A stretch of 64,000 nucleotides of DNA, from the NCBI GenBank assembly GCA_934098745.1, contig CAKOPG010000008.1, positions 6,897-70,896 on the forward strand, read 5' to 3'. The notes beneath the pieces were generated by a model. That model ran no database searches. It was not told the origin of the DNA and saw only the letters and a program-made list of their open reading frames with translations. A program made the translations under genes and the position numbers. Within the stretch, counting starts at the first letter, position 1; each line of letters begins with the position of its first letter. The DNA is from an uncultured Bacilli bacterium. GTDB lineage: Bacteria; Bacillota_I; Bacilli_A; RF39; UBA660. Below, in pieces: positions 1 through 63,616 of the stretch.

Positions 1-130
1 ACAATGGTGCTGACTTAAGAAGTATTCAAATAATGTTAGGACACGAAAACATCTCCACAACGGGAATATATACCAATGTAAGTTTAGATACAGTTAAAGA
101 AAATTATGATTTATATTATCCTAAGGGATA
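1..130 (+). CDS. tyrosine recombinase XerC/XerD family, C-terminal end (5' part outside window)
   Basis: Translation from position 2 reads NGADLRSIQIMLGHENISTTGIYTNVSLDTVKENYDLYYPKG*. It carries the conserved LGH..ISTT.IYT box with the catalytic Tyr of tyrosine recombinases. Confidence 0.7.
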
Positions 131-4097: not shown

Positions 4098-4176
4098 CTC
4101 CTCAAATATGTTTGATATTTTAACATAAAGTTAATTATTTGTAAAGAAAAAATCTGAACGCTTTCATTCAGATTGA

Positions 4177-5526: not shown

Positions 5527-5558
5527 TTAATGTATATAATTTATTAAAAGGTGATAAT

Positions 5559-7591: not shown

Positions 7592-7622
7592 CTAATTAAA
7601 TATATGAAATATTCGTCTATTA

Positions 7623-7651
7623 TTGACAAAACCTTCTTAAAAAAATATAAT
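7623..7651 (+). promoter_or_regulatory. perfect consensus sigma-A promoter for CDS 7673..8596
   Basis: TTGACA (7623..7628), 17-nt spacer, TATAAT (7646..7651). A GGAGG RBS and the ATG at 7673 follow. Confidence 0.7.
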
Positions 7652-7672
7652 TAAATTACATGGAGGTTTTGT

Positions 7673-8596
7673 ATGAAAAGAGAAGAAATAAGAAAAGATT
7701 TTAAATTTTATGATAAATGCCTTAAATATGGCTTAGATTGGCCAAATTATAAAGTTTGTTATTTTGCTGAAGATGATTACGTTATTTACTTTGAAGATTC
7801 TTCAAAGAATATGATAACTTTGTTAGATAAAAATTATAATATTTTTTGTATCTCTAATAACAAGGATTTAAGTCAAACTATTGAAAGCAAAACTTTCGGA
7901 ATAAATCCAGAAACATATGCTTTTATTCAAAAAAAATATCAAGAATATTGTGAATTAACATTTGCCGGTTTTGCATATAAATATGGAATATCTCCATCAT
8001 CTTATCATCCATTTTCAACTTTTTCTTTAAAAGATATAATGGATTTATCTGCCCATACCTTATTTTTAGCCGATGATAAGAATTCTAAAATGCTCGTTGA
8101 CAGAAAACTAGTATGTGGAAAAGAAGATGAAAATTATATTGGTATGCTTTGTTATGTAAACTTTTTAAAATCACTTATCGAAGAATTCCATATTAATGAA
8201 TATCATTTTAAATCTCTAGGATTTGATTATCCAAACATTTATTTTTATTTAAGAAATATGATTAGAAATATTGATACATGTACATTACCTGAAGATCTTC
8301 TAAAATATCTTGGTAAATATGATAGAGAAGCCGTTGCTAATTATCGTGCTTTACTATCTAAAATAATAAATACGATATCAGAAGAAAATAAAGGAGCAAA
8401 AATCAGCCGTGAGACCGTTCCAAGTAATGTGGCTAAAGATATCGATTTATCTTTGATGAGTCAAGAACTTTTAAAAATATTAGATGAAGAAGAAAAAAAG
8501 ACCGTTTCCGCCTCTAAAGCCTATGAAATAGAACGTATCAACCTTTCTTCTTGGCTTAAAACAAAAACCAGAAGAAAAACAAAATATTTTAAGTAA
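7673..8596 (+). CDS. hypothetical protein
   Basis: 307-aa ORF with strong promoter, RBS and a downstream hairpin terminator (tccatacta-cta-gtatgga plus T-run, about 8600..8630). No recognisable motif. Confidence 0.6.
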   Translation: MKREEIRKDFKFYDKCLKYGLDWPNYKVCYFAEDDYVIYFEDSSKNMITLLDKNYNIFCISNNKDLSQTIESKTFGINPETYAFIQKKYQEYCELTFAGFAYKYGISPSSYHPFSTFSLKDIMDLSAHTLFLADDKNSKMLVDRKLVCGKEDENYIGMLCYVNFLKSLIEEFHINEYHFKSLGFDYPNIYFYLRNMIRNIDTCTLPEDLLKYLGKYDREAVANYRALLSKIINTISEENKGAKISRETVPSNVAKDIDLSLMSQELLKILDEEEKKTVSASKAYEIERINLSSWLKTKTRRKTKYFK

Positions 8597-8741
8597 AATA
8601 GTCCATACTACTAGTATGGATTATTCTTTTTAAAACTGGTAATATTTAACAGTTAATAAATCTAAGGAAGCCAATTTTTACATCTTATAAATTGTTCTAT
8701 CTCGTAAAGATTAATAATGTAGTCTTAAGGAGTGATAGACT

Positions 8742-9713
8742 ATGAAAAAATTTCCTCTATTTATGCTTATTCTAACTATTTTAATTCCTTTCCAAGTAAA
8801 CGCATATTCAGATTACATCTTAGCATCTGGTGAAAATATTGGTATTGAGTTAAAAGCTAACCATATTATAATAGTAGGTTCATATGATATTTCCGGCCAT
8901 AATCCACTCACAGAAAATGGTCTAATATTAGGCGATCAAATTTTAAAAGTTAATGGTAAAACTGTAACTAAAATATCCGATTTGCAAAACATTGTAAATG
9001 AAAGCAACAAAGAAACTATTGAGATTACTTATTTAAGAGGTAATACTGAATATACCAAAAATATTAAATTATATTTAGAAGATGGTACATATAAAACTGG
9101 TTTATATGTAAGAGACACTATAAGAGGTGTAGCTACACTTACTTATATCGACGTAGAAAATAAAACCTTTGGTGCTCTAGGACATGAAATACTTGAAAAA
9201 TCTACTAAAAGTAAATTTGAAGCTAACGATGGGACTATCTTTAAATCTACCGTAACTGGCATAATTAAGAGTCAAGATGGTTCACCAGGAGAAAAAAATG
9301 CTCGTAGCGATTCATCTAAGGTATATGGTGAAGTTTTAGAAAATACATCCTCTGGAATATTCGGAAACTATACTAGTAGCATTCCTAAATCTAAATTGTA
9401 TAAAGTCGCCACCTCCGATGAAATTAATTTAGGAAAAGCTAAAATACTTACAGTTATAGATGACAACGATATTCGTGAATTTGATATTAATATTCTAAAA
9501 ATAAACAAAAACTCCACCAGCAAGAATATTCTATTCGAAGTAACCGATGAAGAATTGCTCCAAAAAACAGGTGGTATAGTGCAAGGAATGAGTGGTAGTC
9601 CAATAATTCAAGACAATAACATAGTAGGTGCAGTCAACTTTGTATTAGTAGATAAGACAAATAAAGGATACGGAATATTTATAACAAAAATGTTAGAAGA
9701 AGCTGAAAACTAG
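8742..9713 (+). CDS. spoIVB: SpoIVB signalling serine peptidase (S55)
   Basis: 323 aa. Signal/anchor peptide, PDZ segment GDQILKVNGKTV, GALGH and GIVQGMSGSPII catalytic-serine blocks. Confidence 0.85.
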   Translation: MKKFPLFMLILTILIPFQVNAYSDYILASGENIGIELKANHIIIVGSYDISGHNPLTENGLILGDQILKVNGKTVTKISDLQNIVNESNKETIEITYLRGNTEYTKNIKLYLEDGTYKTGLYVRDTIRGVATLTYIDVENKTFGALGHEILEKSTKSKFEANDGTIFKSTVTGIIKSQDGSPGEKNARSDSSKVYGEVLENTSSGIFGNYTSSIPKSKLYKVATSDEINLGKAKILTVIDDNDIREFDINILKINKNSTSKNILFEVTDEELLQKTGGIVQGMSGSPIIQDNNIVGAVNFVLVDKTNKGYGIFITKMLEEAEN

Positions 9714-12558: not shown

Positions 12559-12758
12559 AACATAATGCCTCTTTTTTTAGAAGAAAAAAACAAACAAATG
12601 TATTGTTTATCTTGACTTTTAATTTTGTATGTGCTAAGCTTACATTGTAAGAAGGGAAAATAATAAAAGATTAATTATAAACCATCTGTTAAAACCTATA
12701 ATTATTTAAAGAAAGATCTATAAAAATTAATAGTTATATAAGATAGTTAACAGTATGC

Positions 12759-12787
12759 TTGACTAATTTTAACATAATGTTTATAAT
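12759..12787 (+). promoter_or_regulatory. sigma-A promoter at the head of the polysaccharide locus
   Basis: TTGACT (12759..12764), 17-nt spacer, TATAAT (12782..12787). Confidence 0.55.
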
Positions 12788-12810
12788 TAAATATAGGTAG
12801 AGTGATAAGT

Positions 12811-13677
12811 ATGAAAAAATTAATAACTATATTGTGGGGGCTATTAATTTTATTTGCAACAAGTAACACTGTTCTTGCCCTAACTGCTAGTGAAGAAAAT
12901 GTTGTAGTTAGTCCTGGTAGTGAAAAGACTATATCTTTATATGCAAATGTAGGTGAAGAGGTTACAAAAATATCTTTTGATTTATATTTCACAACGTATG
13001 ATATTCCGGCTTATTTTTATGTGTCAAACAATCTTACTGATAATAATCCTGATGGTCCAAATCACAAAATAAGCTTAAGTGATGCCACCTCTGGCCAGAT
13101 TCTATTAGGAACAGTTAGTATTAAAAGTAAAAAAAATCCTAAAGATTTATCCGGTGTTATAAATATTCAAAATGGAAAAGCCACCACCGCAGATGGTAGA
13201 ATTATTAACTTAAACAGTGAAAATATTTCAGTCAAAATAGGTGAAGTAAACAATAACATAGACCAAACAACTACCACTGAAAAAGAAACAAAAGAAAGCA
13301 ATTTACTTCAAAATATTGAATCTAATATAGTTAAAATAGACTTAAAAGAAAATGTTTATGAATATAGTATAACAATAAATAAAGATATTGAAGAATTAGA
13401 TTTAAAACCAGTTCCTAAAAAAGATGATTATAAAGTAGAAGTATCTAGTCAAAAAATTAAAGATTTACAAGATAATAAAATTACCATTAAAGTATCTGGT
13501 GGTAATAATACTGAAGAATATATAATTAAAGTAAATCAAATGAAAGATATAGAAAATGTCGAAGTAGATAATTCTAATTTCAAAGAGAATAATAGTTATA
13601 AAGGAAAATGGATAGTTATGATAATCATACTATCTATAGGGTTGGTTTTTGGATTAATATTACAGAAAAAGAGATAA
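12811..13677 (+). CDS. secreted, C-terminally anchored protein with a cadherin-like beta-sandwich segment
   Basis: Start moved to the ATG at 12811 (MKKLITILWGLLILFATSNTVLA signal peptide). C-terminal TM helix plus KKR. The middle segment NVYEYSITINKDIEELDLKPVP...ITIKVSGG..TEEYIIKV resembles cadherin-like repeats. Confidence 0.6.
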   Translation: MKKLITILWGLLILFATSNTVLALTASEENVVVSPGSEKTISLYANVGEEVTKISFDLYFTTYDIPAYFYVSNNLTDNNPDGPNHKISLSDATSGQILLGTVSIKSKKNPKDLSGVINIQNGKATTADGRIINLNSENISVKIGEVNNNIDQTTTTEKETKESNLLQNIESNIVKIDLKENVYEYSITINKDIEELDLKPVPKKDDYKVEVSSQKIKDLQDNKITIKVSGGNNTEEYIIKVNQMKDIENVEVDNSNFKENNSYKGKWIVMIIILSIGLVFGLILQKKR

Positions 13678-13689
13678 GGTTGTGGAAGT

Positions 13690-15564
13690 ATGAAGAAGAT
13701 AGAAAAAATATTAACTCAAAAGAGAATAAGAATTGTAATGTTTATTATCCTTGATATCCTAGCATTAGCATTATGTTCTTTTTTAGCGATAGCCCTTCGT
13801 TTTGATTTTCATGATATCCCGGGTGAATTTATTGATAACATTTATAAATATATTATAATAGATACTATTATTATGATAATTGTATTTTCTATATTTAGGG
13901 TATATAAAAGTATGTGGGCTTATGCTTCAATTACCGAATTAATTAATATTGTAACTGCCTGTACTTGTTATTTAGGAATAGAATATATATACAAATATAT
14001 ATCAAATATAAGCATGCCAAGAAGTTATTATTTAATAAAATTATTCCTATTATATATTTTTATATCTACTATTAGATTTTCATACCGTATAGCTAGAGTA
14101 TTAAAAGATTATTATAAAGTAAAAAATGGTTATACTAATACAATGATTATTGGCGCTGGACAGGCCGGTAGAATGCTAATTACTGAAATATATAATAATA
14201 AAGCTAATTTTAAAAATAAAGTTTGCTGTATCATTGATGATGATAAAAATAAAATAGGGGGATATATTAAAAATATTCCTGTCGTAGGTAATAGAAATAC
14301 TATTGAAAAAAATGTCTTAAAATATGATATTAAAGAAATAATTATTGCTATGCCATCTATTACTAGAGAGAAATTGAATCTAATTCTAGATGAGTGTCAA
14401 AAAACTAAATGTGAAATAAAAACCTTACCTAGTTTAAGTGAATTAGTAGGAAAGCCTACAATGAAGAAAGTAAGGCCAATATCTTATGAAGATTTCTTAG
14501 GTAGAAAAGAAATTGTTGTCGATCTTAAAGAAATATCTTCATCATTAGAAGATAAAAAGGTTCTTGTTACCGGTGGCGGTGGTTCTATTGGTAGTGAATT
14601 GTGTCGGCAAATCGCAAAATGTAAGCCTAAAGAATTAATAATATTTGATATATATGAAAATAACGCTTATGACATAGAACAAGAGTTAATTAGAAATTAT
14701 CCAAATTTAAATTTAAAAACTATAATTGGCTCTGTAAGAGATTATGATAGACTAGAAAGTATTTTTAAAGAATATCGACCTGAGTATGTCTTTCATGCTG
14801 CTGCTCACAAACACGTTCCTTTAATGGAATTTAGCCCTAACGAAGCTATTAAAAATAACTGCTTAGGCACATTAAACACTGTTAAATTAGCTGATATTTA
14901 TAAAGTTAAAAAATTTGTCTTAATATCTTCAGATAAAGCTGTAAGGCCTACAAATGTCATGGGAGCTACCAAAAGAATCTGTGAAATGATTATTCAGGGA
15001 TATAACAAAAAATCTAAAACAGATTATGTAGCTGTTAGATTTGGTAATGTCTTAGGTTCTAATGGTTCTGTTATTCCATTATTCCTAAAGCAAATAGAAA
15101 ATGGCGGGCCTGTAACGGTTACTCATAAAGAAATAACAAGATATTTTATGACTATTCCTGAAGCTGTTTCTTTAATATTACAAGCTTTTGTATATGCTGA
15201 AGGCGGAGAAATTTTTGTTCTTGATATGGGAGAACCAGTAAAGATATACGACTTGGCTAAAAAAATAATTAAATACAAAGGATATGAGCCCGGAACAGAT
15301 ATTCCTATTAAAATAACTGGTTTAAGACCAGGTGAAAAATTATATGAAGAACTGCTAATGGATGAAGAAGGCCTAAAAGAAACACCAAATAAGCTAATTC
15401 ATATAGGCAAACCAATAGATATGGATGATGACAAATTCTTCAAAGAACTAGATAAATTAATTAGTTATTCATATAAAAATAATAAAGATATAAAAGATAA
15501 AGTAGCTAAAGTAGTAGTTACTTATACAGTAGATAAGAAAAAAGGAAGTAATGAAAATGAATAA
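13690..15564 (+). CDS. membrane-bound UDP-GlcNAc 4,6-dehydratase (CapD/PglF/EpsC family)
   Basis: 624 aa. Four N-terminal TM helices and two Rossmann segments (GAGQAG, VTGGGGSIGSEL). YxxxK-type SDR core (HAAAHKHVP). Confidence 0.85.
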   Translation: MKKIEKILTQKRIRIVMFIILDILALALCSFLAIALRFDFHDIPGEFIDNIYKYIIIDTIIMIIVFSIFRVYKSMWAYASITELINIVTACTCYLGIEYIYKYISNISMPRSYYLIKLFLLYIFISTIRFSYRIARVLKDYYKVKNGYTNTMIIGAGQAGRMLITEIYNNKANFKNKVCCIIDDDKNKIGGYIKNIPVVGNRNTIEKNVLKYDIKEIIIAMPSITREKLNLILDECQKTKCEIKTLPSLSELVGKPTMKKVRPISYEDFLGRKEIVVDLKEISSSLEDKKVLVTGGGGSIGSELCRQIAKCKPKELIIFDIYENNAYDIEQELIRNYPNLNLKTIIGSVRDYDRLESIFKEYRPEYVFHAAAHKHVPLMEFSPNEAIKNNCLGTLNTVKLADIYKVKKFVLISSDKAVRPTNVMGATKRICEMIIQGYNKKSKTDYVAVRFGNVLGSNGSVIPLFLKQIENGGPVTVTHKEITRYFMTIPEAVSLILQAFVYAEGGEIFVLDMGEPVKIYDLAKKIIKYKGYEPGTDIPIKITGLRPGEKLYEELLMDEEGLKETPNKLIHIGKPIDMDDDKFFKELDKLISYSYKNNKDIKDKVAKVVVTYTVDKKKGSNENE

Positions 15565-16684
15565 TAATAAAAGAATTTTTTTAGCATCTCCTCATATGAT
15601 GGGAAATGAAGAAAAATACGTTAAAGAAGCTTTTGAAAGCAATTGGATAGCCCCATTAGGACCATTCGTAAATAAGTTAGAAGAAGACTTTAAAAAATAT
15701 ATGTCAGCTGGTGGAGCTTGTGCTTTGGCAAGCGGTACTGCCGCTTTGCATCTAGCTATAAAATTAGCCGGTGTTAAGGAAGGAGATTATGTGTTCTGCT
15801 CATCATTAACATTTTCTGCAAGTGCTAATCCAATACTATATGAGCATGCTATCCCAGTATTTATTGATTCAGAGCCAGGCAGTTATAATATGAGTCCTAT
15901 AGCCCTAGAAAAAGCTTTTGAAAAATATACTCCCAAAGCCGTTGTAATTGTATCACTATATGGAATGCCAGCAACTATAGATAAATTAATGAAGATTTGT
16001 AAGAAACATAAAGTAACTATTATTGAAGATGCTGCTGAATCCTTAGGAGCTACTTATAAAGGAAAATTAATAGGAACTTTTGGAAACTATAACATCATTA
16101 GTTTTAATGGTAATAAAATAATTACCACTTCCGGTGGGGGAATGCTTTTAACAAAGAAAGAAAAAGATGCAAAAAAAGCCTTGTTTTGGGCAACACAAGC
16201 CCGTGAACCAGCTAGATATTATCAACACAAAGAAATCGGTTATAATTATCGTATGTCTAACGTATCAGCTGCCATTGGTTGCGGTCAATTTGAATGCCTA
16301 GATAAAAAGATTAAAATGAAACAAGATATTTTTAATCGTTATGTAGAAGCCTTTAAGGATATACCAGAAATAGAAATGTTAAGTGAAGACAAAGATAGAG
16401 TATCTACTCACTGGTTAAGTGTCATGAAATTAAATAATTCAAAAATAACTCCTGATGATATTATCGATGCTTTAGATAAAGAAAATATTGAATCACGTCC
16501 AATATGGAAACCAATGCATATGCAACCAGTATTTAAAAAATATCCCTTCTTTAATCACAATAAAAAAGGTATCTCTGTATCTGAAGAATTATTCAATACC
16601 GGAGTATGCTTACCAAGCGATACGAATATGACTAAAAAAGAACAAGAAAGAGTAATAGAAACAATTAAAAATTTATTTATATAG
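15551..16684 (+). CDS. DegT/DnrJ/EryC1-family sugar aminotransferase (PglE/EpsN-like)
   Basis: 377 aa. Aminotransferase fold with the SFNGNKIITTSGGGM PLP-lysine block. Overlaps the dehydratase gene by 14 nt. Confidence 0.85.
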   Translation: MKMNNNKRIFLASPHMMGNEEKYVKEAFESNWIAPLGPFVNKLEEDFKKYMSAGGACALASGTAALHLAIKLAGVKEGDYVFCSSLTFSASANPILYEHAIPVFIDSEPGSYNMSPIALEKAFEKYTPKAVVIVSLYGMPATIDKLMKICKKHKVTIIEDAAESLGATYKGKLIGTFGNYNIISFNGNKIITTSGGGMLLTKKEKDAKKALFWATQAREPARYYQHKEIGYNYRMSNVSAAIGCGQFECLDKKIKMKQDIFNRYVEAFKDIPEIEMLSEDKDRVSTHWLSVMKLNNSKITPDDIIDALDKENIESRPIWKPMHMQPVFKKYPFFNHNKKGISVSEELFNTGVCLPSDTNMTKKEQERVIETIKNLFI

Positions 16685-16698
16685 AAAGGAAAATACCT

Positions 16699-17319
16699 AT
16701 GTATCAAAAATATATTAAAAGGTTATTGGATATAATCTTATCACTATTAGCAATTATTATAACATTACCCATATTTTTGATAGTAGGTATTTTTGTTCTA
16801 ATATTTATAGGAACGCCAGTCTTATTTAGACAAAAACGTCCTGGTAAAAATGAAAAAATATTTACCATGTACAAATTTAGAACGATGACTAATAAAAAAG
16901 ATAAAGACGGTAATTTATTACCCGATAAACTAAGATTAACTAAGTTGGGAAAATTTTTAAGAAAAACTAGCCTCGATGAAATACCAGAATTTATCAACAT
17001 TTTAAAAGGTGATATGTCATTCGTAGGACCTAGACCCCTTTTAGTAGAGTATCTTCCATACTATACCAAAGAAGAACATCATCGTCACGATGTAAGACCA
17101 GGCTTAACAGGTTTAGCTCAGGTAAACGGAAGAAATTTGTTGGGCTGGAATGATAAATTCAAAAAAGATTTAGAATATGCTAATAATGTAACGTTTATGG
17201 GTGATTTTAAAATAATCATTAAAACAATATCAACTGTATTAAAAAGAGAAGGAATAAGTGACCAAAAAACAGTTACTATGACTAGTCTGATAGATGAAAG
17301 GAAGAAAGCAAATGTCTAA
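16699..17319 (+). CDS. undecaprenyl-phosphate sugar phosphotransferase (PglC/EpsL-type initiating transferase)
   Basis: 206 aa. One N-terminal re-entrant helix, KFRTM, DEIPEFINILKGDMSFVGPRP motif. Confidence 0.85.
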   Translation: MYQKYIKRLLDIILSLLAIIITLPIFLIVGIFVLIFIGTPVLFRQKRPGKNEKIFTMYKFRTMTNKKDKDGNLLPDKLRLTKLGKFLRKTSLDEIPEFINILKGDMSFVGPRPLLVEYLPYYTKEEHHRHDVRPGLTGLAQVNGRNLLGWNDKFKKDLEYANNVTFMGDFKIIIKTISTVLKREGISDQKTVTMTSLIDERKKANV

Positions 17320-17929
17320 AAATATTATAATAATTGGTGCTGGTGGCCATGCCAAAGTAATTGCAGATATCATCACTAAGTCAGACGATAACCTAATTGG
17401 TTTTTTAGATGATAACTTAGATATTCAAAACAAAACAATTTATTTAGATAAGAAAGTCATAGGTACTATAAAAGACATCGATAAATATAAAGAATGTTAT
17501 TTTATTATAGGTATTGGAAATAACAACATAAGAGAAAATATTGCTAATACCTATAATTTAAAGTGGCATACTGTCATTCACCCAAGTGCTATAATAGCAA
17601 ATGAAGTATCAATAGGAGAAGGTAGCGTAGTAATGGCTGGAGCAATTGTAAATCCAGGTACTAAAATTGGTAAACATTGTATAATAAATACTAAATCATC
17701 ATTAGATCATGATAGTATAATTGAAAATTATGTTCATATTTCTCCCGGAGCAACACTTGCAGGCACTGTACATATAAAAGAAAAAACATGGATATGTGCT
17801 GGAGTAACTATAATTAATAACATAAAGGTAGCAAAAAATAATATTGTTGGTGCTGGGGCTGTAGTGATTAAAGATATAAAAGAAGAAAATGGTACTTACG
17901 TTGGAGTACCTGCAAGAAAAATAAAGTAG
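17294..17929 (+). CDS. NeuD/PglD-family hexapeptide sugar N-acetyltransferase
   Basis: 211 aa. N-terminal IIGAGGHAKV Rossmann-like domain followed by left-handed beta-helix hexapeptide repeats. Confidence 0.8.
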   Translation: MKGRKQMSKNIIIIGAGGHAKVIADIITKSDDNLIGFLDDNLDIQNKTIYLDKKVIGTIKDIDKYKECYFIIGIGNNNIRENIANTYNLKWHTVIHPSAIIANEVSIGEGSVVMAGAIVNPGTKIGKHCIINTKSSLDHDSIIENYVHISPGATLAGTVHIKEKTWICAGVTIINNIKVAKNNIVGAGAVVIKDIKEENGTYVGVPARKIK

Positions 17930-17938
17930 GTGAAGGAT

Positions 17939-19045
17939 ATGAAAAAAGTGTTATATGTTGCTACTGTAGATATACATATAAAAACGTTTCATTTACCATA
18001 CTTAAAAATGCTACATGATATGGGATATGAAGTCCATGTCGCCACAAACGGAACGGAACAATTCCCATATTGCGACAAAAAATATACGATACCGATTGAA
18101 AGAAGTCCATACAAATTAAAAAATATCAAAGCTATTAAAGAGTTAAAAAAAATAATCAATAAAGAAAATTATGATATTGTCCATTGTCATACTCCAATGG
18201 GATCAGTTGTTACTAGATTAGCTGCAAAAAATGCAAGAAAAAATGGAACAAGAGTAATATATACAGCTCATGGATTTCATTTTTATAAAGGAGCTCCTAT
18301 AATAAATTGGTTATTATTTTATCCAATAGAAAAATACTTAGCCAAATATACTGACACCTTAATTACGATAAATAAAGAAGATTACAATTTGGCAAAGAGT
18401 AGATTTTTTAAAAGATGTAAAGATATAGAATATCTACCAGGAATTGGCGTTGATAGTTCAAAATTTGATTTAAATATTAGTGATAGAGATAAAAAGACCT
18501 TAATGAATGAACTCAAATTAAAAAATGATGATTTTGTCATAATTTATCCAGCAAGATTATGCCCAGACAAGAATCAAATATTATTATTAAAACTTATGCA
18601 AAGATTAAATAATAATAGTAATATAAAATTGCTTTTACCCGGAAAAGATGAATATAATGGATTTTATCAAAAATTTGTTAACAATAATAAAATCAATAAT
18701 GTATTATTTTTAGGTCACCGAAATGACATTTCAAAACTATTAAAAATATCTGATTTATTGATAGCAACAAGCATCAGAGAAGGATTTGGAATTAACCTTG
18801 TTGAAGCCTTAGCAAGCGAAACTCCCGTTATAGCCGTTGATAATAGGGGACATAGAGAAATAATCGTTGAAGGAGAAAATGGGTTTATTATAAAAAATGA
18901 TATTAATGATCTAATGGACAAGTTTAATTTGATTTACAACAATCATGATCTGTATAACAAATTAAAAGCTAATAGTTATAAAAGCGTAAGAAAATACTTT
19001 TTGAATAATTCTATAAAAGAAATGAAAAAAATATATGATATTTAG
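17939..19045 (+). CDS. glycosyltransferase family 4 (GT-B)
   Basis: Start moved to the ATG at 17939, after the AGGTGA RBS. The EGFGINLVEALA E-x7-E-type block is present. Confidence 0.8.
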   Translation: MKKVLYVATVDIHIKTFHLPYLKMLHDMGYEVHVATNGTEQFPYCDKKYTIPIERSPYKLKNIKAIKELKKIINKENYDIVHCHTPMGSVVTRLAAKNARKNGTRVIYTAHGFHFYKGAPIINWLLFYPIEKYLAKYTDTLITINKEDYNLAKSRFFKRCKDIEYLPGIGVDSSKFDLNISDRDKKTLMNELKLKNDDFVIIYPARLCPDKNQILLLKLMQRLNNNSNIKLLLPGKDEYNGFYQKFVNNNKINNVLFLGHRNDISKLLKISDLLIATSIREGFGINLVEALASETPVIAVDNRGHREIIVEGENGFIIKNDINDLMDKFNLIYNNHDLYNKLKANSYKSVRKYFLNNSIKEMKKIYDI

Positions 19046-43020: not shown

Positions 43021-43057
43021 TATCTTACGTCAGTCCCTTTGGGATAAATAAAAAAGA
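43021..43057 (+). repeat. copy A of a conserved ~30-bp intergenic motif (TTACGTYAGTYCC-NNN-GGGATAA)
   Basis: ttatcttacgtcagtccctttgggataaataaaaaag is near-identical to 63580..63616 and, in reverse complement, to 59186..59214 and 61423..61453. Confidence 0.7.
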
Positions 43058-43271: not shown

Positions 43272-43904
43272 ATGAAAAAAAAATATAACAGTATTAGTAA
43301 AATAATTATTCCTGCTAAAAAAATCAATTATTTCATTATAGGCATACTTTTCCTAGGATTAATCCTCGGAGCCGTCTTTGCAAATATCATTGGCTTTAAC
43401 GATAAAACTCTAGTAGTAGATAAAATTAAATTATTTATAGATAACGTCAACACCGGTGAAATAAATAGCCTTATAGCCTTTAAAAACAGCATATCTATTA
43501 ATTTATTATATGTAATTGTTATCTGGATAATGGGAATGACTTTAGTAGGCATACTATTTAATATCTTACTTCTTTTTTCTAAATCATTTATCCTAGGTTT
43601 TTCTCTTGCATCATTTATCATTACCTATAGTTACAAAGGCATAATTCTATCTATCCTATATCTATTACTAGGACAACTCCTAAACATCTTAGTAATCAGT
43701 ATCTTAACTATCTATAGCCTAATGTTTTCATCTAAACTATTTAAAGTAATATTTAAAAACCAAAATAATCATGATATTCTTAATTTCCTAAGAAATTATC
43801 TAATTATTCTAGCTTCATCAGTTATCATAAGCGGTATTTCTTCATCATTCGAATCATTCTTATTACCTGCCTTAATAAAATTAATCATTAAACTATTTAT
43901 ATAA
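43272..43904 (+). CDS. spoIIM: stage II sporulation protein M-like membrane protein
   Basis: 210 aa, five or six TM helices. Size and topology match SpoIIM. No diagnostic motif that I can verify by eye. Confidence 0.5.
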   Translation: MKKKYNSISKIIIPAKKINYFIIGILFLGLILGAVFANIIGFNDKTLVVDKIKLFIDNVNTGEINSLIAFKNSISINLLYVIVIWIMGMTLVGILFNILLLFSKSFILGFSLASFIITYSYKGIILSILYLLLGQLLNILVISILTIYSLMFSSKLFKVIFKNQNNHDILNFLRNYLIILASSVIISGISSSFESFLLPALIKLIIKLFI

Positions 43905-48520: not shown

Positions 48521-51500
48521 ATGAAAAATTATAGTATAGGATTAGATATTGGTACAACCTCAGTTGGTTGGGCAATAATTGATAATAGTACATTCAAACT
48601 AATAAAAAAAGGAAACAAAAGACAAAGTATGTGGGGAGTAAGACTCTTTGATGAAGCAATATCCGCTGAAGGAAGAAGAAGTAGTAGAAGCTCTAGAAGA
48701 AGATACGAAAGAAGAAGACAAAGAATTAAATTATTACAAGAAATATTCAAAGGTGAAATAACAAAAGTTGATGCTGACTTTTTCAAAAAATTACATGACA
48801 GTTTTTATTCAACAGAAGATAAAACCAATAAAAAAGCAATATTAACTAATTATGATAAAATTAATATTTTTGGAAATAATAATAGAAAGCTAACTGAAAA
48901 GAAATATCCGACAATATACCATATTAGAAATAAAATTATTAACAGTAATGAAAAAGAAGATATTAGATTAATTTACTTAGCAATACATCATATCATTAAA
49001 TATCGTGGTAATTTCTTATATAATAGTGATAATTTTAGTGTTAATAACTTAAATATTAAAGAAAAATTACAAGAAACCTTTACTGAAATAAACTCTTTAT
49101 GTAAAGAAATAAATTTTAATTATGATGAAGTAAATGATAACTTATATGAGAAATTAGCAAAAGCATTATTAGAAAAATCAATAAATGATAAAAAAGTTTT
49201 AATAAAAGAATTATTAACAAATTACTTCAGCAAAGATTTCACAAATGAATTTATTAAATTAATTTTAGGTAATCAATTCAATATCTCAAAATTATTTAAT
49301 ATAGACTTAGAAGAAGAAATTAAACTTAATTTTAAAGGAACAGACTATGAAGATAAATATTCTGAACTAGAAAAAGCCCTTGAAGATAAAATATCAGTAT
49401 TAAATTTACTCAAAGAATTATATGATATGCTATTCTTAAAAAATTTATTTGGTAATAGTAGTGAAACAAATATATCATCCCTTATGATTAATAGATATGA
49501 TAAACATCATTTAGATTTAATGTTTTTAAAAAGATTACTTAAATATGATAAAAACATATATAAAGAATTTTTTAAAGATAAAAACAAAGATACTTCAAAA
49601 GAAGAATTGTGCATATATTCAAAATATGTAAATAACAAGATTACTTATGATGAATTTATAAATAAACTAAATAAATCATTAGAAAAAATATTTGATAACA
49701 ACATACCATTAAAATTAAAGGAAGAATACAATAAAGTTAAAATTGACATAGAAAATGGAACATTTTTACCTAAAATAACAAACCCTGATAATGGTAAATA
49801 TCCATATCAATTAAACAAAGATGAACTAATAAAAATAATCGAATCACAAGGGAAGTATTATAACTTTTTAAATGAGAAAGTAATTATAAATGGTAAACTT
49901 AAATATAAGCTAGTGCAACTACTAGAATTTAGAATTCCATATTATGTTGGACCACTTAATACTAATACAAATAAAAAAAATGTTTGCAATAAAAATGCCT
50001 GGCTAATTAAAAAAGATAATTATGCAAAAATTACACCATTCAATTTTGATGAAGTAATAGATAAAGAACAAACCGCAGAACAATTTATCACAAGAATGAT
50101 ATCTAACTGTACATATTTAATAAACGAAAAAGCCATTCCTAGTAATTCTATACTATATTCAAAATATAAAGTTTTAAATGAACTTAAACAAATTAAAATA
50201 AACAATGCAAAATTACCAATAGATTTACAACATAAAATATATGAAGAATTATTTTTAACTACCAACAAAACAATAACAGAAAAAATGTTTATTGACTTTA
50301 TAAAGAAGACAAACGAATACTCGATGTATAATGATATATTATTAATCGAAGGGTATTCAGATGATAAAAAGTTTGCTAATAATATGAAAAGCTATTATGA
50401 TTTCTTTGGAGAAAATGGTATCTTTAATAATACAGATTATACTACTGAAGATGCTGAAGAAATAATTAAATGGATAACTATCTTTGAAGACAAAGATATA
50501 TTAGAGCAAAAAGTAAGAAATAATTATCCAAAATTAAACGAACAACAAATTAAACAAATCATTACAAAAAAATATCGTGGATGGAGTAATCTTTCTAAAA
50601 AGTTACTTACAGGAATAATTTATAAAGATAAAATAACAGAAAATCCCAAATCTATAATGGATTTAATGTGGGAAACAAGTGAAAACTTTATGCAAATTAT
50701 GTTTAATAAAGAATATAAGTTTCAAGATAAAATTAATAAACTTAATGTAGTAAAAGATATAAATAAAATTAATTATTCACTAGTAGAAAACCTTGCTACC
50801 TCTCCAGCTACTAAAAAAGGAATATATCAAGCCTTAAAAGTAGTTGAAGAGTTGATTAACTATATGGGATATAGCCCTGAAAATATTATAATAGAAATGG
50901 CTAGAAGTGAAGAACTAAAGCAAAGAAAAGATAATCGAAAAGAATACCTAAAGAAAATATATATAAATTGTAAAAAAGATATTGATAACTATAATTCACT
51001 CTTTGCCGAATTAGAAAAAAAAGACAAAATAGATTCCGAAAAATTATTCTTATATTTTATCCAATTAGGTAGAAGCATCTATTCAAAAGAACCCTTAGAT
51101 ATAAATAATCTAGAATCATATGAAGTCGATCACATAATACCAAGAACTTTGATTAAAGATGATTCAATTGATAATAAAGTCTTAGTATTAAAAGAGGAAA
51201 ATCAAGAAAAAGCAGCAAGTTTTGTATTGCCAAGACATTTTAGAACAAACGAGATGATACAATGGTGGAAACATCTAAAAGACTTAAACCTAATTAGTTC
51301 AAAAAAATTTAATAACTTATGTCGAGATTATTATTCAGAAAAAGATATTGAAGGATTTATTAATAGACAATTAGTAGAAACAAGACAAATAGCTAAACAT
51401 GTAGCAAATATCTTAAATAATTTTTACAAAAGCACTAACATAATTTATTTACACGCCAACTTATCCAGTAATTATAGAGAAAAGTATGAATTGTTTAAAT

Positions 51501-52690
51501 ATCGAGAATTAAATGATTTCCATCATGCACATGACGCCTATTTAGCAAGTGTACTTGGTATATATCAAAAAAAATATCTCAATAAATCTACTGATTTTAA
51601 TAAATTAAAAGCATTGCAAAAAAAATTAAGTACTGCAGGAAAATATAATGAATTAAAATATGGTTATGTCATTAACAGTATCAACAATGAAGTAGCACGT
51701 TTTAATGAAGATACCGGTGAAATATTATTTGATGCTGACTATTTTAATGATACAATTAAAAACACTTTATATCAAAACGACATATTAATAAGTAAAAAAA
51801 CAGAGATTAAAACAGACAGATTTTATAAAGAAACAATATATAAAAAACATGATAAAAAAGTAAAATTCAATTTAAAAGAAAACTTAGATCCTTATTTATA
51901 TGGTGGATATACTGAAACAAACTATTCATACATGAAATTAATTGAATATCAAAAGAAAAATAAAAAAATTAATTCCTTAATTGGTATTCCTGTCTTACTA
52001 GAAAAAAACAAAAATAAAGAAAAACTAATTGATAACTACATTAAAAAAGCTTTCTCAATAGATAACTATATAGTAAAAAAAGCCAAATTACCATTTAATT
52101 TATTGCTTAATTATAAAAATCATAACTGTATAATTACTGGTTGCGCTACAGCCTCAGCAGAACTTGTCAATGCCAAAGAATTTACTTTAACAAAAAAAGA
52201 ACAAATAGAATACAAATACTTATTAAATTATATCTTCAATAATAAATATCCTAATAAAGAAAAATATCTAAAAGAAAATAAATTAAATGATATGAATTAT
52301 ATAGATTATCAAGAACATTGTAAAAAAGTATTTAATAGCCAAATAAATAACTTATTTACATTGATAATAGAACGTATTAAAACCAATTATCCTCTTTATA
52401 ATTCAATATATGAAAAATTAAACTTAGTTAAAAACTCCAAAGAATTTGCTAATTTACCACTTGAAATAAGTAATGAAGAAGCCAGAAAAGGTAATATATC
52501 AAAAACAATTATAATCAATCAATTATTCATAATGTTAAAGTGTAATCCAACCAATGTCAATTTAGAAAGACTAAATAAAACCGTTAAATTTAATAATAGA
52601 GTTGGCAGAACAAGTAGTGTTAATATTACATCAGCAACTATAATAAATAAATCAGTAACAGGTTTAAAGGAAAGAAAATATGAGTTTTAG
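48521..52690 (+). CDS. cas9: type II CRISPR-associated endonuclease Cas9
   Basis: 1389 aa. RuvC-I YSIGLDIGTTSVGWAII, Arg-rich bridge helix RRSSRSSRRRYERRRQRI, RuvC-II IIIEMARS, HNH YEVDHIIPRTLIKDDSIDNKVLV, RuvC-III DFHHAHDAYL. Confidence 0.97.
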   Translation: MKNYSIGLDIGTTSVGWAIIDNSTFKLIKKGNKRQSMWGVRLFDEAISAEGRRSSRSSRRRYERRRQRIKLLQEIFKGEITKVDADFFKKLHDSFYSTEDKTNKKAILTNYDKINIFGNNNRKLTEKKYPTIYHIRNKIINSNEKEDIRLIYLAIHHIIKYRGNFLYNSDNFSVNNLNIKEKLQETFTEINSLCKEINFNYDEVNDNLYEKLAKALLEKSINDKKVLIKELLTNYFSKDFTNEFIKLILGNQFNISKLFNIDLEEEIKLNFKGTDYEDKYSELEKALEDKISVLNLLKELYDMLFLKNLFGNSSETNISSLMINRYDKHHLDLMFLKRLLKYDKNIYKEFFKDKNKDTSKEELCIYSKYVNNKITYDEFINKLNKSLEKIFDNNIPLKLKEEYNKVKIDIENGTFLPKITNPDNGKYPYQLNKDELIKIIESQGKYYNFLNEKVIINGKLKYKLVQLLEFRIPYYVGPLNTNTNKKNVCNKNAWLIKKDNYAKITPFNFDEVIDKEQTAEQFITRMISNCTYLINEKAIPSNSILYSKYKVLNELKQIKINNAKLPIDLQHKIYEELFLTTNKTITEKMFIDFIKKTNEYSMYNDILLIEGYSDDKKFANNMKSYYDFFGENGIFNNTDYTTEDAEEIIKWITIFEDKDILEQKVRNNYPKLNEQQIKQIITKKYRGWSNLSKKLLTGIIYKDKITENPKSIMDLMWETSENFMQIMFNKEYKFQDKINKLNVVKDINKINYSLVENLATSPATKKGIYQALKVVEELINYMGYSPENIIIEMARSEELKQRKDNRKEYLKKIYINCKKDIDNYNSLFAELEKKDKIDSEKLFLYFIQLGRSIYSKEPLDINNLESYEVDHIIPRTLIKDDSIDNKVLVLKEENQEKAASFVLPRHFRTNEMIQWWKHLKDLNLISSKKFNNLCRDYYSEKDIEGFINRQLVETRQIAKHVANILNNFYKSTNIIYLHANLSSNYREKYELFKYRELNDFHHAHDAYLASVLGIYQKKYLNKSTDFNKLKALQKKLSTAGKYNELKYGYVINSINNEVARFNEDTGEILFDADYFNDTIKNTLYQNDILISKKTEIKTDRFYKETIYKKHDKKVKFNLKENLDPYLYGGYTETNYSYMKLIEYQKKNKKINSLIGIPVLLEKNKNKEKLIDNYIKKAFSIDNYIVKKAKLPFNLLLNYKNHNCIITGCATASAELVNAKEFTLTKKEQIEYKYLLNYIFNNKYPNKEKYLKENKLNDMNYIDYQEHCKKVFNSQINNLFTLIIERIKTNYPLYNSIYEKLNLVKNSKEFANLPLEISNEEARKGNISKTIIINQLFIMLKCNPTNVNLERLNKTVKFNNRVGRTSSVNITSATIINKSVTGLKERKYEF

Positions 52691-52859: not shown

Positions 52860-53353
52860 TGTTTTATATTTATGTTATCTCAAATAGTATTGAAACTAAT
52901 CATGCAAGTGAGTAGTCCCAATCATCGTTTTAGATTTATGTCATCTTGAATGGTATTAAAACACACTCGATTTCACTTGGATAATCAGGGCTGTTTTAGA
53001 TTTATGTCATCTTAAATGGTATTAAAACAAATATAGCAAAGTGTTTTGCTTGTGGTGTGTTTTAGATTTATGTCATCTTGAACAATATTAAAACACTTCG
53101 TAAGATACGTACAACACCAATAGCGTTTTAAATCTATGTCACCTTTAATTGGTATTAAAACTTGTTTTAATACTTATATAAAAGCACCTATGTTTTATAT
53201 TTATGTCATCTTATATAGAATTTACATCAAAAATTTATAATCTTTACACGATTTAGATTGCCCTGTTTTAGATTTATGCTATCTTAAATGGTATTAAACT
53301 AATCTTTCTACTTATGCAAATTGGGAAGTGTTTTATATTTATGTCATTTTAAA
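52860..53353 (+). CRISPR. type II CRISPR array, 8 repeats / 7 spacers, heavily degenerate
   Basis: The 36-nt repeat is GTTTTAGATTTATGTCATCTTAAATGGTATTAAAAC. Repeats start at 52860, 52926, 52992, 53058, 53124 (37 nt), 53191, 53264 (35 nt) and 53329 (truncated). Six spacers are 30 nt and one is 37 nt. Only the repeat at 52992 is consensus and 52926 differs by 1 nt; the others carry 2 to more than 6 changes. Confidence 0.95.
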
Positions 53354-54410
53354 CAAAAAAAGAGTAGGGGGAATACCAAAGATCATTTAATTTAAAAAGA
53401 TGGAAAATTATCTGTTTAAAACATAACTTTCTTCAATTATGCGTTGCATCATCTACTTCAATCAGTATTAATAAATTATCACATTCTTTATCAAAAATAG
53501 CAAAGTCAATGTTTCTAATTTGCAATAATACTAGCTAAATTAAGAAGTATTATTTTTATCATCCTTAATAAATCATATTAATATTTTTTTAACATAAAAC
53601 AACACACTCCAACAATAAAATATTCGTTCGCTTTTAAAAATATAAAAAATAATAAAAAGATTACAAATATTAAATTTATATCATTATAATAAAAAACAGT
53701 AATAATATAATTAACTATACCTTAATAAATATATTATTTGTAGTCTTATTACTCTTTTTTGTCCTTTCAATTAAGTTCCTATAATATATATTATGTTAAC
53801 TTCTCTATATTTTTAAATTATATAATATATCCAAATAATAAAATATAATTAATAAATAAAAACCTTTAATTCATTTATATCTAAGTTTTCCTTTGTAATT
53901 CTAAACAATAGCAATTACATATAAATATTTATTATTTATTATTAATTATCTATTATTATCTATATAATATATATTAATAAGATTTATATATTAATAATAA
54001 ATAAACGACACTTAATTAACATCGCCTACACTCATACACTTACCAAAATTTGCACCGATTATGTCTTAGCTTATCACTTTATTCATCCACGATGCAAATT
54101 TTTTTAAGCAAAACATCTTACAATATTACATTACATAGTCTTCATCTTCTTATAATATTCAAAAACTATCATTCCTTCATCTTAACTAATTAACAAAGAA
54201 TTTTTCCTCCGCTAAAATTTGCATCGAGATTATCCTAGCTTATTAACTTATCCACCTACAATGCAAATTAAAATTAAATCATCTCTATAAATTTTGCATC
54301 GAATTCAACATATTAATATTCTTATCCATCATTATTTCAAAATTATATCAATTAATCATATAACGTATAATTTTATCTTAATTGCTAACACTATATAATG
54401 GAGGTTAACT

Positions 54411-59185: not shown

Positions 59186-59214
59186 TTATTATCCCCGAGG
59201 GACTAACGTAATAT
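59186..59214 (-). repeat. copy B of the conserved ~30-bp intergenic motif
   Basis: The plus strand reads ttattatccccgagggactaacgtaatat, i.e. the reverse complement of the copy A/D consensus. Confidence 0.65.
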
Positions 59215-61422: not shown

Positions 61423-61453
61423 CTATTATCCCTAAGGGACTAACGTAATATCT
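61423..61453 (-). repeat. copy C of the conserved ~30-bp intergenic motif
   Basis: The plus strand reads ctattatccctaagggactaacgtaatatct. Confidence 0.65.
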
Positions 61454-61545: not shown

Positions 61546-63360
61546 TTAAGCGAAGCACGCCACCGCACGGAAACCTTCGTTCACGTACGCAGCGCCGTTA
61601 GTGCCGCTGAAGTAGAAGACACCGGCATTGGCACCATTGTAACAGTAACCACCACGACCGAACCACGGGCTCGTGGCAGAAACAAAGTACGTGTAATCTC
61701 CATACCAGCTACTTGTTTCTGATAGACTTCGTCCATAACAATAGCCTCCACTACATGCCGTTAAAGCACTAATGGTTGTGCCACTACTTGCTTTGTATAC
61801 TTCATAATACTTAGATTCCGGAAAAGCTATTCCATCGGTTTTGGAAGTACCATTAGTTCCTAGTAAGCCATTAAAACCTGAATTTAATGAAGTAGAAAGA
61901 CCACTCCATAAGGTACCATCGGAATTAGCAAACACTCCCATCACTCTTTCCCATGCTCCACCAGACATATCAAAGATTCCTGATATATTACCAGTGGTAC
62001 TTTGCGGATATATTGAAGATGAACCATAAGTTATTCCGCATGTTGCACTATTACTAGCATTGACCGTACTGGCTCCACACCCGGTAAGTGTTTTTCTACT
62101 ATTCCAGTAATTATTAATTCTTACTTCGCTGTTTATCCCATACTTAGAGTGCGACAGATAAGCTACTGCTCCCCACTCATTATTCTTCATCATATGAGAA
62201 TTAGTAGTTGTGGTTAATCCATATGTATTACTACCAGAGAATGTTGTAGTTCCATTACTAAGTGTTCCCCCAGCAAATTTTAAACCTACAATAAAAGCTG
62301 TTGATATATTTTGATCAGTTAATGATGCCACATTAGGCTTTATCGTCGGAGTCGTCGCATTTCCGGTAGTTTCAAATTTGCCTACCCAAATACCATTTAA
62401 TTCCGTATCCCCAAATGTAAATGCCGGATGTGTTAAATACTCTCCAATTTGTGTTCCTATTGACTTTGTCGTATCTTTATCTTCAAAAACAATCTCTATC
62501 TCTTGTTCTTGTCCCTGTGCACTAGTACCTACAGTCCATATTTTATACTTATATCTCGGTATCCAGACATAATATGTCAAGATACTATCTTCTGGTATTG
62601 TCACCCCTGTTGTATTTAGATAACTACTCCTTGACGATTCTGTTACCAGTACGGCATTCGCCCATTGTTGTTCATCATAATTATACCACGATGCATCACT
62701 ACTAGATATTGTTGTTACTGTTCCATTATCAGCTATTGTTACCGGAATCATGCCACTATCTAATTCTGGAGCACTAGGTTTAACCGGTGCTTGATCTATA
62801 CAACTACCCCCAAGAGATAGGCTAAAAGTTTGATTCATCGTATCACTCGATGTTTCTTCTTTATCTAACCATATCCATAAATAATATGTATCTGTTGTTG
62901 TACTAGAATATTCTTTTGAACTTAATAATCTTACTCTATTATTTGTTGCTTTTCCGGTAAATGTTCCTGATGATACCGGATTATCACAACTATCAGCACT
63001 TGTTGTTAAAGCATATCTAAAATTATTACTGTTAGTTAAACCGGTTCCTATACTATTTATCGTTAACCATAAATCCATATAAATAGTCTTACCACTCTTA
63101 GTAATTGTTGGTGTTACTTTTACTTCTCTCTTTATAGCATACTTACTATTTGTACATTCACATGGTGCTAAAGTTATATCATTAGACGTTATATTACCGC
63201 CACCATCAGCTGCACAACTAAAATCACCCGTTACTGTAAATACCACATTAGTTTTCTCATTTTCAGATGTTTGCCATGTAAAATATGCAAAAGTACTACC
63301 TACAATTACAAATATTAATGATAATACCACTAAAATAATAGACACTCTTTTATTCTTCAT
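61546..63360 (-). CDS. secreted protein with a TasA/SipW-type signal peptide and an FGE/C-type-lectin-like C-terminal region; candidate DGR target
   Basis: 604 aa. N-terminal MKNKRVSIILVVLSLIFVIVGSTFAYFT resembles SipW-cognate signal peptides. C-terminal ...WFGRGGYCYNG...NEGFRAVACFA fits the RGG...GFR end of FGE/CLec-fold domains. Confidence 0.75.
   Translation of the reverse strand: MKNKRVSIILVVLSLIFVIVGSTFAYFTWQTSENEKTNVVFTVTGDFSCAADGGGNITSNDITLAPCECTNSKYAIKREVKVTPTITKSGKTIYMDLWLTINSIGTGLTNSNNFRYALTTSADSCDNPVSSGTFTGKATNNRVRLLSSKEYSSTTTDTYYLWIWLDKEETSSDTMNQTFSLSLGGSCIDQAPVKPSAPELDSGMIPVTIADNGTVTTISSSDASWYNYDEQQWANAVLVTESSRSSYLNTTGVTIPEDSILTYYVWIPRYKYKIWTVGTSAQGQEQEIEIVFEDKDTTKSIGTQIGEYLTHPAFTFGDTELNGIWVGKFETTGNATTPTIKPNVASLTDQNISTAFIVGLKFAGGTLSNGTTTFSGSNTYGLTTTTNSHMMKNNEWGAVAYLSHSKYGINSEVRINNYWNSRKTLTGCGASTVNASNSATCGITYGSSSIYPQSTTGNISGIFDMSGGAWERVMGVFANSDGTLWSGLSTSLNSGFNGLLGTNGTSKTDGIAFPESKYYEVYKASSGTTISALTACSGGYCYGRSLSETSSWYGDYTYFVSATSPWFGRGGYCYNGANAGVFYFSGTNGAAYVNEGFRAVACFA
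61549..61695 (-). other. candidate DGR variable region (VR)
   Basis: These are the last 49 sense codons of the gene. G+C is 77/130 in 61551..61680. Only one codon (GAA) ends in A. Most codons are NNC/NNT, in sharp contrast with the upstream codons of the same gene. Confidence 0.55.
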
Positions 63361-63379
63361 AATTACCTACTTTCTATAT

Positions 63380-63402
63380 CCCTAAGTATAATACTTAAGG
63401 AC
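63380..63402. repeat. left inverted repeat (IRL) of the candidate invertible promoter element
   Basis: ccctaagtataatacttaaggac is the perfect 23/23 reverse complement of 63550..63572. It lies 20 nt upstream of the start codon at 63360. Confidence 0.85.
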
Positions 63403-63491
63403 CCTTTTGTATGCATATGAATATCTTACATTATAAGGCTTTAAGACACATTTTAAAGAATATAAAAGTAGATAAAAAGTTAAATTTTGTA

Positions 63492-63520
63492 TTTACAGAA
63501 AATAAGTGTTATGCTATAAT
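63492..63520 (+). promoter_or_regulatory. near-consensus sigma-A promoter inside the IR-bounded segment, currently facing away from the gene
   Basis: TTTACA (63492..63497), 17-nt spacer ending in TGc, TATAAT (63515..63520). Confidence 0.65.
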
Positions 63521-63549
63521 TTATATAGGTTAAATAAAGATAGAGGTGT

Positions 63550-63572
63550 GTCCTTAAGTATTATACTTAGGG
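63550..63572. repeat. right inverted repeat (IRR); on the plus strand it also forms a hairpin plus T-run
   Basis: gtccttaagtattatacttaggg is internally palindromic (about 10-bp stem, 3-nt loop). It is followed by caTTTTTT, so it acts as a terminator for the promoter in its present orientation. Confidence 0.8.
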
Positions 63573-63579
63573 GCATTTT

Positions 63580-63616
63580 TTATCTTACGTCAGTTCCTCT
63601 GGGATAAATAAAAAAG
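63580..63616 (+). repeat. copy D of the conserved ~30-bp intergenic motif
   Basis: ttatcttacgtcagttcctctgggataaataaaaaag differs from copy A (43021..43057) at 2 of 37 positions (35/37 identical). Confidence 0.7.

Follow-up and report, generated by a model that had tools for sequence, protein, structure and literature searches.

A probable invertible promoter switch, in its OFF orientation, ahead of a gene that is a putative target of a diversity-generating retroelement in an uncultured gut Bacilli bacterium

The stretch of DNA analysed here, hereafter the window, comprises 64,000 nucleotides of an uncultured Bacilli bacterium (Bacillota_I; Bacilli_A; RF39; UBA660) and corresponds to positions 6,897 to 70,896 of the forward strand of contig CAKOPG010000008.1 (GenBank assembly GCA_934098745.1). 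Close to its end, directly upstream of a minus-strand gene encoding a 604-aa protein (61546..63360), a pair of perfect inverted repeats (IRs) encloses a strong promoter that points away from the gene. This element is very probably an invertible promoter switch (inverton) that now stands in its OFF orientation, and closely related cassettes occur in both orientations ahead of paralogous genes in other gut metagenomes. The 3' end of the controlled gene is homologous to the template repeat (TR) of a diversity-generating retroelement (DGR), with mismatches concentrated at adenines, which points to the gene being a DGR target. An inverton with its promoter inside is of an already known kind, and the switch itself is ordinary; the presence of per-gene switches on DGR targets is the more novel angle.

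The two IR arms, at 63380-63402 (CCCTAAGTATAATACTTAAGGAC) and 63550-63572 (GTCCTTAAGTATTATACTTAGGG), are reverse-complementary at 23 of 23 positions and enclose 147 nt. Compared as direct repeats they are only about 80% alike, so their relation is truly inverted and they are not two copies of one palindrome, in agreement with the initial annotation, which had described perfect inverted arms that mismatch when read in the same direction. Even at a tolerance of three mismatches, the 23-mer site occurs in just these two places in the window, and 100 dinucleotide-preserving shuffled controls gave 0.00 matches. Each arm is part of a 25-bp dyad-symmetric site in which 9-bp half-sites of the form CC(T/C)TAAG.. 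flank a 7-bp core consisting of A and T only. The gene-distal recombination site (IRR, 63550..63574) has the dyad structure GTCCTTAAG-TATTATA-CTTAGGGGC, its first 23 nt being the perfect arm, and the gene-proximal site (IRL, 63378..63402) is likewise a 25-bp dyad, with the perfect arm at 63380-63402; no strand is assigned to either site. The ATG of the controlled gene lies 19 nt beyond the proximal arm, a correction of the 20 nt originally given.

A cassette of about 193 bp with this layout lies directly in front of the start codons of paralogs, in copies that are 84-93% identical to that of the window. The set consists of seven distinct copies, namely the one in the window and those on three contigs of two other gut metagenome samples (three on L006, two on L012 and one on L014); L001 is the window's own locus in another assembly. 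All copies precede members of one gene family at a distance of 15-20 nt from the start codon, and the length of the interior is constant at 146-147 nt. Aligned with their interiors in one direction, the seven copies agree in the promoter hexamers, the leader and the half-sites and diverge in the middle, where a 1-nt indel is located. The architecture of the 25-bp site is common to all seven. The central asymmetric triplet of its core falls into two classes (TAA/TTA and TAT/ATA), and in seven of seven cassettes the triplets are reverse-complementary between the arms, as is required for inversion rather than deletion. A search for further copies of the 23-bp site, proposed in the initial annotation, yielded only the two arms in the window, and in about 250 kb of related DNA the recombination sites occur only as pairs around cassettes. 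More distant homologs of the protein (P0092, with 53% identity, and the Hadza gut loci L007-L011) have no cassette and are located 91 nt behind an ABC/FtsX operon, indicating that the switch is specific to one lineage.

Five of the seven cassettes are OFF, with the promoter directed away from the gene (window/L001, L014, the first and second cassettes of L006, and the first of L012), and two are ON, with the promoter directed toward it (the third cassette of L006, with its gene at 5461, and the second of L012, with its gene at 11064). In L006 the intergenic region and its cassette have been tandemly duplicated. The left flanks of the duplicates (2340-2810 and 4800-5270) are identical over 470 nt save for one mismatch in the 3' end of the upstream gene, and the outer half-sites are identical, and the segment at 2791-2984 is the exact reverse complement of that at 5251-5444 (194/194). 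A polymorphism in the inner half-site (TTAGGG/TTAAGG) changes sides together with the interior; strand exchange therefore took place within the 25-bp sites, at a point that separates the outer half-site from the inner one, and on this sequence comparison the crossover lies where site-specific recombination predicts it. The flip is recent, since it is accompanied by no substitution in flank or interior. The crossover region can be read here directly from natural sequence variation, and the case is an unusually clean example from an uncultured endospore-forming Firmicute of the human gut.

In addition, three contig ends fall inside IRs, those at the starts of L012 and L013 in a proximal IR and that at the end of L013 in a distal IR. 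The last 55 nt of L006 are the first 55 nt of L013, and this overlap starts exactly at the polymorphic base of the inner half-site; given how assemblers presumably behave, it would reflect a branch in the assembly graph caused by mixed orientations in that sample. An assembly artefact is unlikely, because no assembly k-mer is as short as the IRs and every junction of flank, IR and interior must have been spanned by real reads. That the segment flips between its IRs, as had been suggested, is thus upheld by the related sequences, with the window locus itself being OFF in both of its assemblies.

Homologous recombination of the RecA type between the 25-bp IRs, in which case the flips would be occasional evolutionary accidents rather than programmed phase variation, is a quite unlikely explanation of these inversions. 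It would accord with the finding that no dedicated invertase is present in the window or near the other cassettes, and with the fact that the evidence for inversion compares loci and not a population at one locus. However, repeats of 23-25 bp do not exceed the minimum that homologous recombination usually requires to be efficient, and the layout of dyad half-sites around an AT core, which is that of recombinase core sites, is conserved at seven loci. The invariable matching of the central asymmetric triplets and the fixed segment length of 146-147 nt also speak against it, and the 100% identity of the flipped duplicates together with the three contig ends in IRs argues for frequent and recent flipping.

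For a programmed switch, we infer from the sites that the invertase is a tyrosine recombinase encoded elsewhere. Half-sites of 9 bp around a 7-bp AT core are a layout met more typically with tyrosine than with serine recombinases. The window contains the 3' end (1..128, plus strand, with the C-terminus encoded by 3-128) of a gene for a XerD-like tyrosine recombinase of 301 aa, the translation of which includes LGHENISTTGIYTNV. Pfam scans of all other window open reading frames (ORFs) of at least 100 aa, together with a motif scan, detected no further recombinase, so that within this scope the xerD-like fragment is the only one in the window, as stated in the initial annotation. The full-length gene (L015 9078-9983) scores 311.5 bits against the XerD model TIGR02225 (cut-off 329.6) and 291 bits against NF001399 (cut-off 279), a model for a general tyrosine-recombinase subfamily. 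The same neighbourhood surrounds it in five assemblies (L015-L019), where it is flanked by genes for an MgsA-type AAA ATPase and for a member of the phosphoglucomutase family. It looks like a housekeeping gene in a conserved neighbourhood and nothing ties it to the switch, leaving it as a candidate invertase only. No RecV-like gene was found in the window or in the related contigs examined.

The invertible interior (63403..63549, 147 bp, no strand assigned) is conserved at both ends and variable in its middle across the seven cassettes. On the plus strand it carries a strong sigma-A-type promoter, TTTACA-17-TGcTATAAT at 63492..63520, which matches 11 of 12 consensus positions, has a TG before the -10 and is the best-scoring site of the region; it points away from the gene and has a predicted start near 63527. 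Promoter-like sites in the AT-rich kilobase around the segment are not above chance (5 observed vs 6.3 expected), so the stronger argument for this promoter is its conservation, both hexamers being invariant in the seven cassette copies. In the same copies the -35, TGCTATAAT and the initial ~25 nt of the leader show little or no variation. The distal IR hairpin followed by TTTTTT (63576-63581) makes up a predicted intrinsic terminator that is specific to this orientation (63548..63581, plus strand). This hairpin with its T6 (63548-63576 plus tail) is the sole terminator-like site called, against 0.1 expected, and folding gives -15.4 kcal/mol for the distal hairpin and -23.6 kcal/mol for the OFF transcript. 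In seven of seven cassettes the outward strand has a T-run after the distal site, and in none of them is the proximal site followed by one toward the gene.

Between the proximal site and the ATG lies a fixed leader with a weak Shine-Dalgarno (SD) sequence (63361..63379, minus strand), and no T-run follows the proximal hairpin. When the segment was inverted in silico, the resulting ON transcript kept the proximal hairpin, lacked a U-tract and ran on to the SD and the ATG, and the natural ON copies (L012 11020-11064 and L006 5421-5461) have a layout that matches this leader. The proposals made at the outset for this region, namely an outward promoter in a segment that is at present OFF, a transcript that meets a hairpin and T-run terminator at the distal repeat, and passage after inversion through a proximal hairpin without a U-run into the gene, are supported at the level of sequence by these observations. 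A 40-aa ORF inside the segment (63411..63533) was also considered as a gene and was rejected, its frame being broken by the 1-nt indel at alignment column 121.

The proposed mechanism is as follows. A recombinase encoded elsewhere would exchange strands within the two 25-bp dyad sites and thereby flip the 147-bp interior. In the OFF state the promoter would fire away from the gene, and the transcript, starting near 63527, would enter the distal site after about 25 nt; this site would fold as a 13-bp hairpin followed by U6, and transcription would terminate after about 50 nt. In the ON state the same promoter and its conserved 25-nt leader would pass the proximal site, which would form the same hairpin with no T-run behind it, and transcription would continue to the SD, the ATG and the 604-aa gene. 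Because the hairpin has a T-run distally and none proximally, each recombination site would double as the stem of an orientation-dependent terminator. A terminator that works in one orientation and has a recombination site for its stem is a compact design that might be reusable in synthetic switches. These transcriptional consequences of orientation, like ongoing flipping at the window locus, are predictions from sequence.

At the other end of the interior, a weaker promoter-like site is directed toward the gene (TTTAAA-16-TATAAT, 63430..63457, minus strand). It matches 10 of 12 consensus positions and has no TG; its -10 is kept in six of the seven copies, and its -35 lies inside the variable middle. 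This site could give some basal expression in the OFF state, weak at best. It is also central to a second alternative, in which the module at the window locus is static, with the weak inward promoter driving the gene and the outward promoter producing a short terminated RNA or acting as an insulator against read-through from ftsZ. Such an arrangement would agree with the shared orientation of the window and L001, with the OFF orientation of five of the seven cassettes, and with the existence and largely conserved -10 of the gene-directed site. Nevertheless, it is highly improbable: the arms are perfect at 23 of 23 positions, whereas decaying sites would gather mismatches, near-identical cassettes are found flipped, and the -35 of the inward promoter falls in the non-conserved middle. 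The predicted short RNA likewise matches no Rfam family, a search with the segment and the short OFF transcript giving a best E of 0.47 and 24 bits against a cut-off of 59 bits.

The terminal inverted repeats, small size and multiple copies of the 193-bp unit might recall a miniature inverted-repeat transposable element with an outward-reading promoter that was inserted upstream of genes, but this barely credible reading is ruled out, since all copies lie 15-20 nt before the start codon of one gene family and none elsewhere in the window or the fetched loci, there is no target-site duplication (CTATAT precedes IRL and GCATTT follows IRR), searches of 596 Gb of reference genomes and of the viral collection turned up no copies, and transposition would not yield an in-place inversion with unchanged flanks. 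A relative of the 604-aa protein was not found in the viral contig collection either, nor was the cassette core.

Several points weigh against the invertible switch as the preferred reading. The window and L001 are the two available assemblies of the exact locus and both are OFF, with an identical switch, so inversion at this locus is argued by analogy with the paralogous loci. Every ON example comes from one metagenome sample (ERZ28614532), and the argument from the 55-nt overlap depends on how the assembler is thought to behave. Motif and Pfam scans found no recombinase within about 10 kb of the other cassettes, and the one recombinase gene of the window is housekeeping-looking and 63 kb away from the switch. 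In a scan of reference genomes (596 Gb) and JGI metagenomes with a 20-mer of the IR, three partnerless single hits were obtained (L003-L005), which were judged to be chance matches; the source species with this site is apparently absent from both collections, and with hits of this kind only, the switch is not traceable in independent isolates. Lastly, given the gene-facing promoter-like site, OFF may mean low rather than no expression.

The protein encoded by the controlled gene has a hydrophobic segment at its N-terminus and, judged by its relatives, a C-terminal FGE-sulfatase/C-type-lectin-like region, and it belongs to a family of more than 7,400 homologs. The FGE-sulfatase model PF03781 is matched by 11 of 28 aligned relatives, and the window protein itself matches no Pfam model; the FGE-sulfatase domain has a lectin-like fold that is common among DGR variable proteins. 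From its sequence, the 604-aa product may be described as a secreted, hypervariable protein. A SipW-type signal peptide considered for its N-terminus received no support from an NCBIfam search and is not claimed. An exact look-up of the 604-aa protein, of P0001 (identical to the window protein) and of P0004 gave no match. Upstream of the gene lies ftsZ, which is also on the minus strand and ends at 63655 (mapped from L001).

The 3' ~150 nt of the gene have a GC content of about 50%, compared with 26% for the genome, and contain a putative DGR variable region (VR; 61551..61694, minus strand) that is 86% identical to a template repeat at L013 2034-2177. Of the 20 mismatches between the two, 15 are located at template adenines, which occupy 34 of the 144 positions (Fisher p = 1.6e-7), and adenine-biased mismatches are likewise present in five paralogs. 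This homology to the template repeat and the concentration of mismatches at adenines identify the switched gene, on sequence features, as a DGR target. The 64-kb window holds no second copy of the GC-rich 3' end that could serve as template repeat, and the repeat was found on contig L013. On L013 a paralog comes first, followed by a 144-nt repeat of its 3' end, an Avd gene (2762-3115; NF033474 with 77 bits against an 80-bit cut-off, and PF22296) and a reverse transcriptase (RT) gene (3103-4146; RVT_1). A small MutS_I-like ORF (L013 2467-2769) is situated ahead of the Avd gene.

Contig L013 comes from a sample that also contains the exact window locus (L001), and its template repeat, Avd and RT presumably belong to the same genome as the window locus. 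Joined by their 55-nt overlap, L006 and L013 would form an array of gene1 - gene2 - gene3 - TR - Avd - RT, with a cassette for each gene and gene3 in the ON state. In multi-target DGRs, such as those of Treponema, Legionella and Bacteroides, the variable region is C-terminal and FGE/C-type-lectin-like, differences are adenine-specific, Avd and RT lie beside the TR, and targets may be remote. The present system resembles them in the adenine bias between VR and TR, in the location of Avd and RT beside the template repeat of L013, and in the matches to PF03781 among relatives.

Further observations concern this gene and its relatives. All nine nucleotide differences between the window gene and that of L001 fall in a stretch of 230 nt near the 5' end (gene nt 108-339), and several of them are G/A; outside that stretch the two genes agree fully, as do their variable regions and switches. 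The contig L002/L018 (ENA ERZ27287302, contig k141_630908) spans the whole window region and ends within the 604-aa gene, 288 nt before the stop codon, with the variable region starting about 140 nt further along the gene, a break that may result from sequence heterogeneity or from repeats among paralogs. One naturally ON paralog (L021 11064-12581) is shorter, at 505 aa, and is followed by a gene for a 457-aa HTH_3 protein (12749-14122) and an ABC/FtsX pair (14208-18870). This pair resembles the one preceding the cassette-less homologs of L007-L011, which hints that the family is functionally tied to the transporter.

The switched gene is one of at least seven paralogs, each with its own cassette, and a DGR would diversify the lectin-like variable regions at the C-termini of their products; a population could in this way vary in the set of paralogs that it expresses as well as in what these bind. 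We tentatively consider it possible, though somewhat short of probable, that two programmed variation systems are stacked on one family, with a single DGR rewriting the C-termini that bind the ligand in at least seven lectin-fold surface proteins and with a 146-147-bp inverton of its own for each paralog, the sites of which double as terminator stems, giving combinatorial display and binding. Full-text searching, in a body of literature with incomplete coverage, retrieved no paper that describes DGR target genes with invertible promoters; this silence on invertons that gate DGR targets is weak evidence of novelty. The control of expression of DGR-diversified proteins in gut commensals is poorly understood, and an ON/OFF switch for each gene suggests that display is costly or dangerous, for instance because the proteins are immune targets or phage receptors. 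The switch also offers a handle on the expression of DGR proteins that can be mapped with reads in existing metagenomes.

Several known systems are comparable to the switch. In Escherichia coli, fimS is a 314-bp element with 9-bp IRs at a single locus, with FimB and FimE encoded next to it. The window switch shares with fimS a promoter inside the invertible element, probable inversion by tyrosine recombinases (established for fimS) and putative ON/OFF control of a surface adhesin, and it differs in the adjacent recombinase genes, single locus and 9-bp IRs of fimS. In Clostridioides difficile, cwpV and flgB have promoters external to the switch and are controlled after initiation, via a terminator or Rho. 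The present case is similar in its low-GC Firmicute host, in the size of the switch and in a probably distant recombinase; in contrast, the promoter here is inside the switch, the IRs supply the terminator stem, and the cassette is duplicated with one paralog family. The RecV switches of C. difficile (cwpV, flgB, cmrRST, pdcB and others) have imperfect IRs of about 20 bp and are located at unlinked loci served by one distant tyrosine recombinase (PMC7446863, PMC9286219, PMC8844915).

The closest analogue in the sources consulted is the mpl (P35 lipoprotein) family of Mycoplasma penetrans, a surface multigene family with a small adjacent invertible promoter for most genes. Of its 38 surface lipoprotein genes most have their own invertible promoter, several loci switch ON and OFF independently, and the suspected invertases are tyrosine recombinases encoded elsewhere (PMC2268961, PMC10502178, both citing Horino et al. 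2003). Those genes encode lipoproteins of a wall-less Mollicute and are not known to involve a DGR, whereas the proteins here are lectin-fold proteins of an endospore-forming gut Firmicute; the sites seem unrelated in sequence. In Bacteroides fragilis, promoter-bearing segments flanked by IRs occur at many surface-structure loci, including those for capsular polysaccharides (Mpi), and are inverted by global recombinases (PMC2268961). Invertons are widespread in gut bacteria, including Firmicutes, and are listed in the PhaseFinder and DeepInverton catalogues (PMC11602134, PMC11892184). Phase variation through promoter inversion is textbook knowledge, and with tens of thousands of invertons catalogued, this switch adds nothing to the concept as such. 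The Bacteroides Mpi system and the catalogued gut invertons differ from the present switch in phylum, in promoter consensus and, for Mpi, in the use of a serine recombinase, and no link of theirs to a single family of protein paralogs or to DGR targets is known.

Elsewhere in the window, a dispersed intergenic motif of 25-30 nt (TATCCCTAAGGGACTAACGTAATAT) is present at 61427-61451 and 59190-59214 (both plus strand) and at 43022-43046 (minus strand), as well as at L014 7720-7745, and a diverged copy lies at about 63583-63612, beside the distal IR. The copies are found just downstream of genes in either orientation, with none in shuffled sequences, and form a hairpin (TCCC...GGGA) whose loop differs from copy to copy (TAA, CGA, AAA or AGA); the motif may belong among REP-like or terminator-like elements. 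A type II cas9 gene encoding 1389 aa (48521-52690, plus strand) is followed by eight degenerate 37-nt repeats with a spacing of 65-73 nt (52861-53366), and among window ORFs of 100 aa or more there is neither cas1 nor cas2; the CRISPR locus may be a minimal one or one in decay. A large capsule/polysaccharide cluster (12802-37255, plus strand) encodes Polysacc_synt_2, DegT, Bac_transf, several glycosyltransferases, Wzz, CpsB and LytR. The sporulation genes gpr, spoIIP, spoIVB and spoIIM are located at 4552-9713 and 43272-43904, indicating that the host is an endospore-forming Firmicute with a GC content of about 26%, which occurs in Hadza and other human gut metagenomes.

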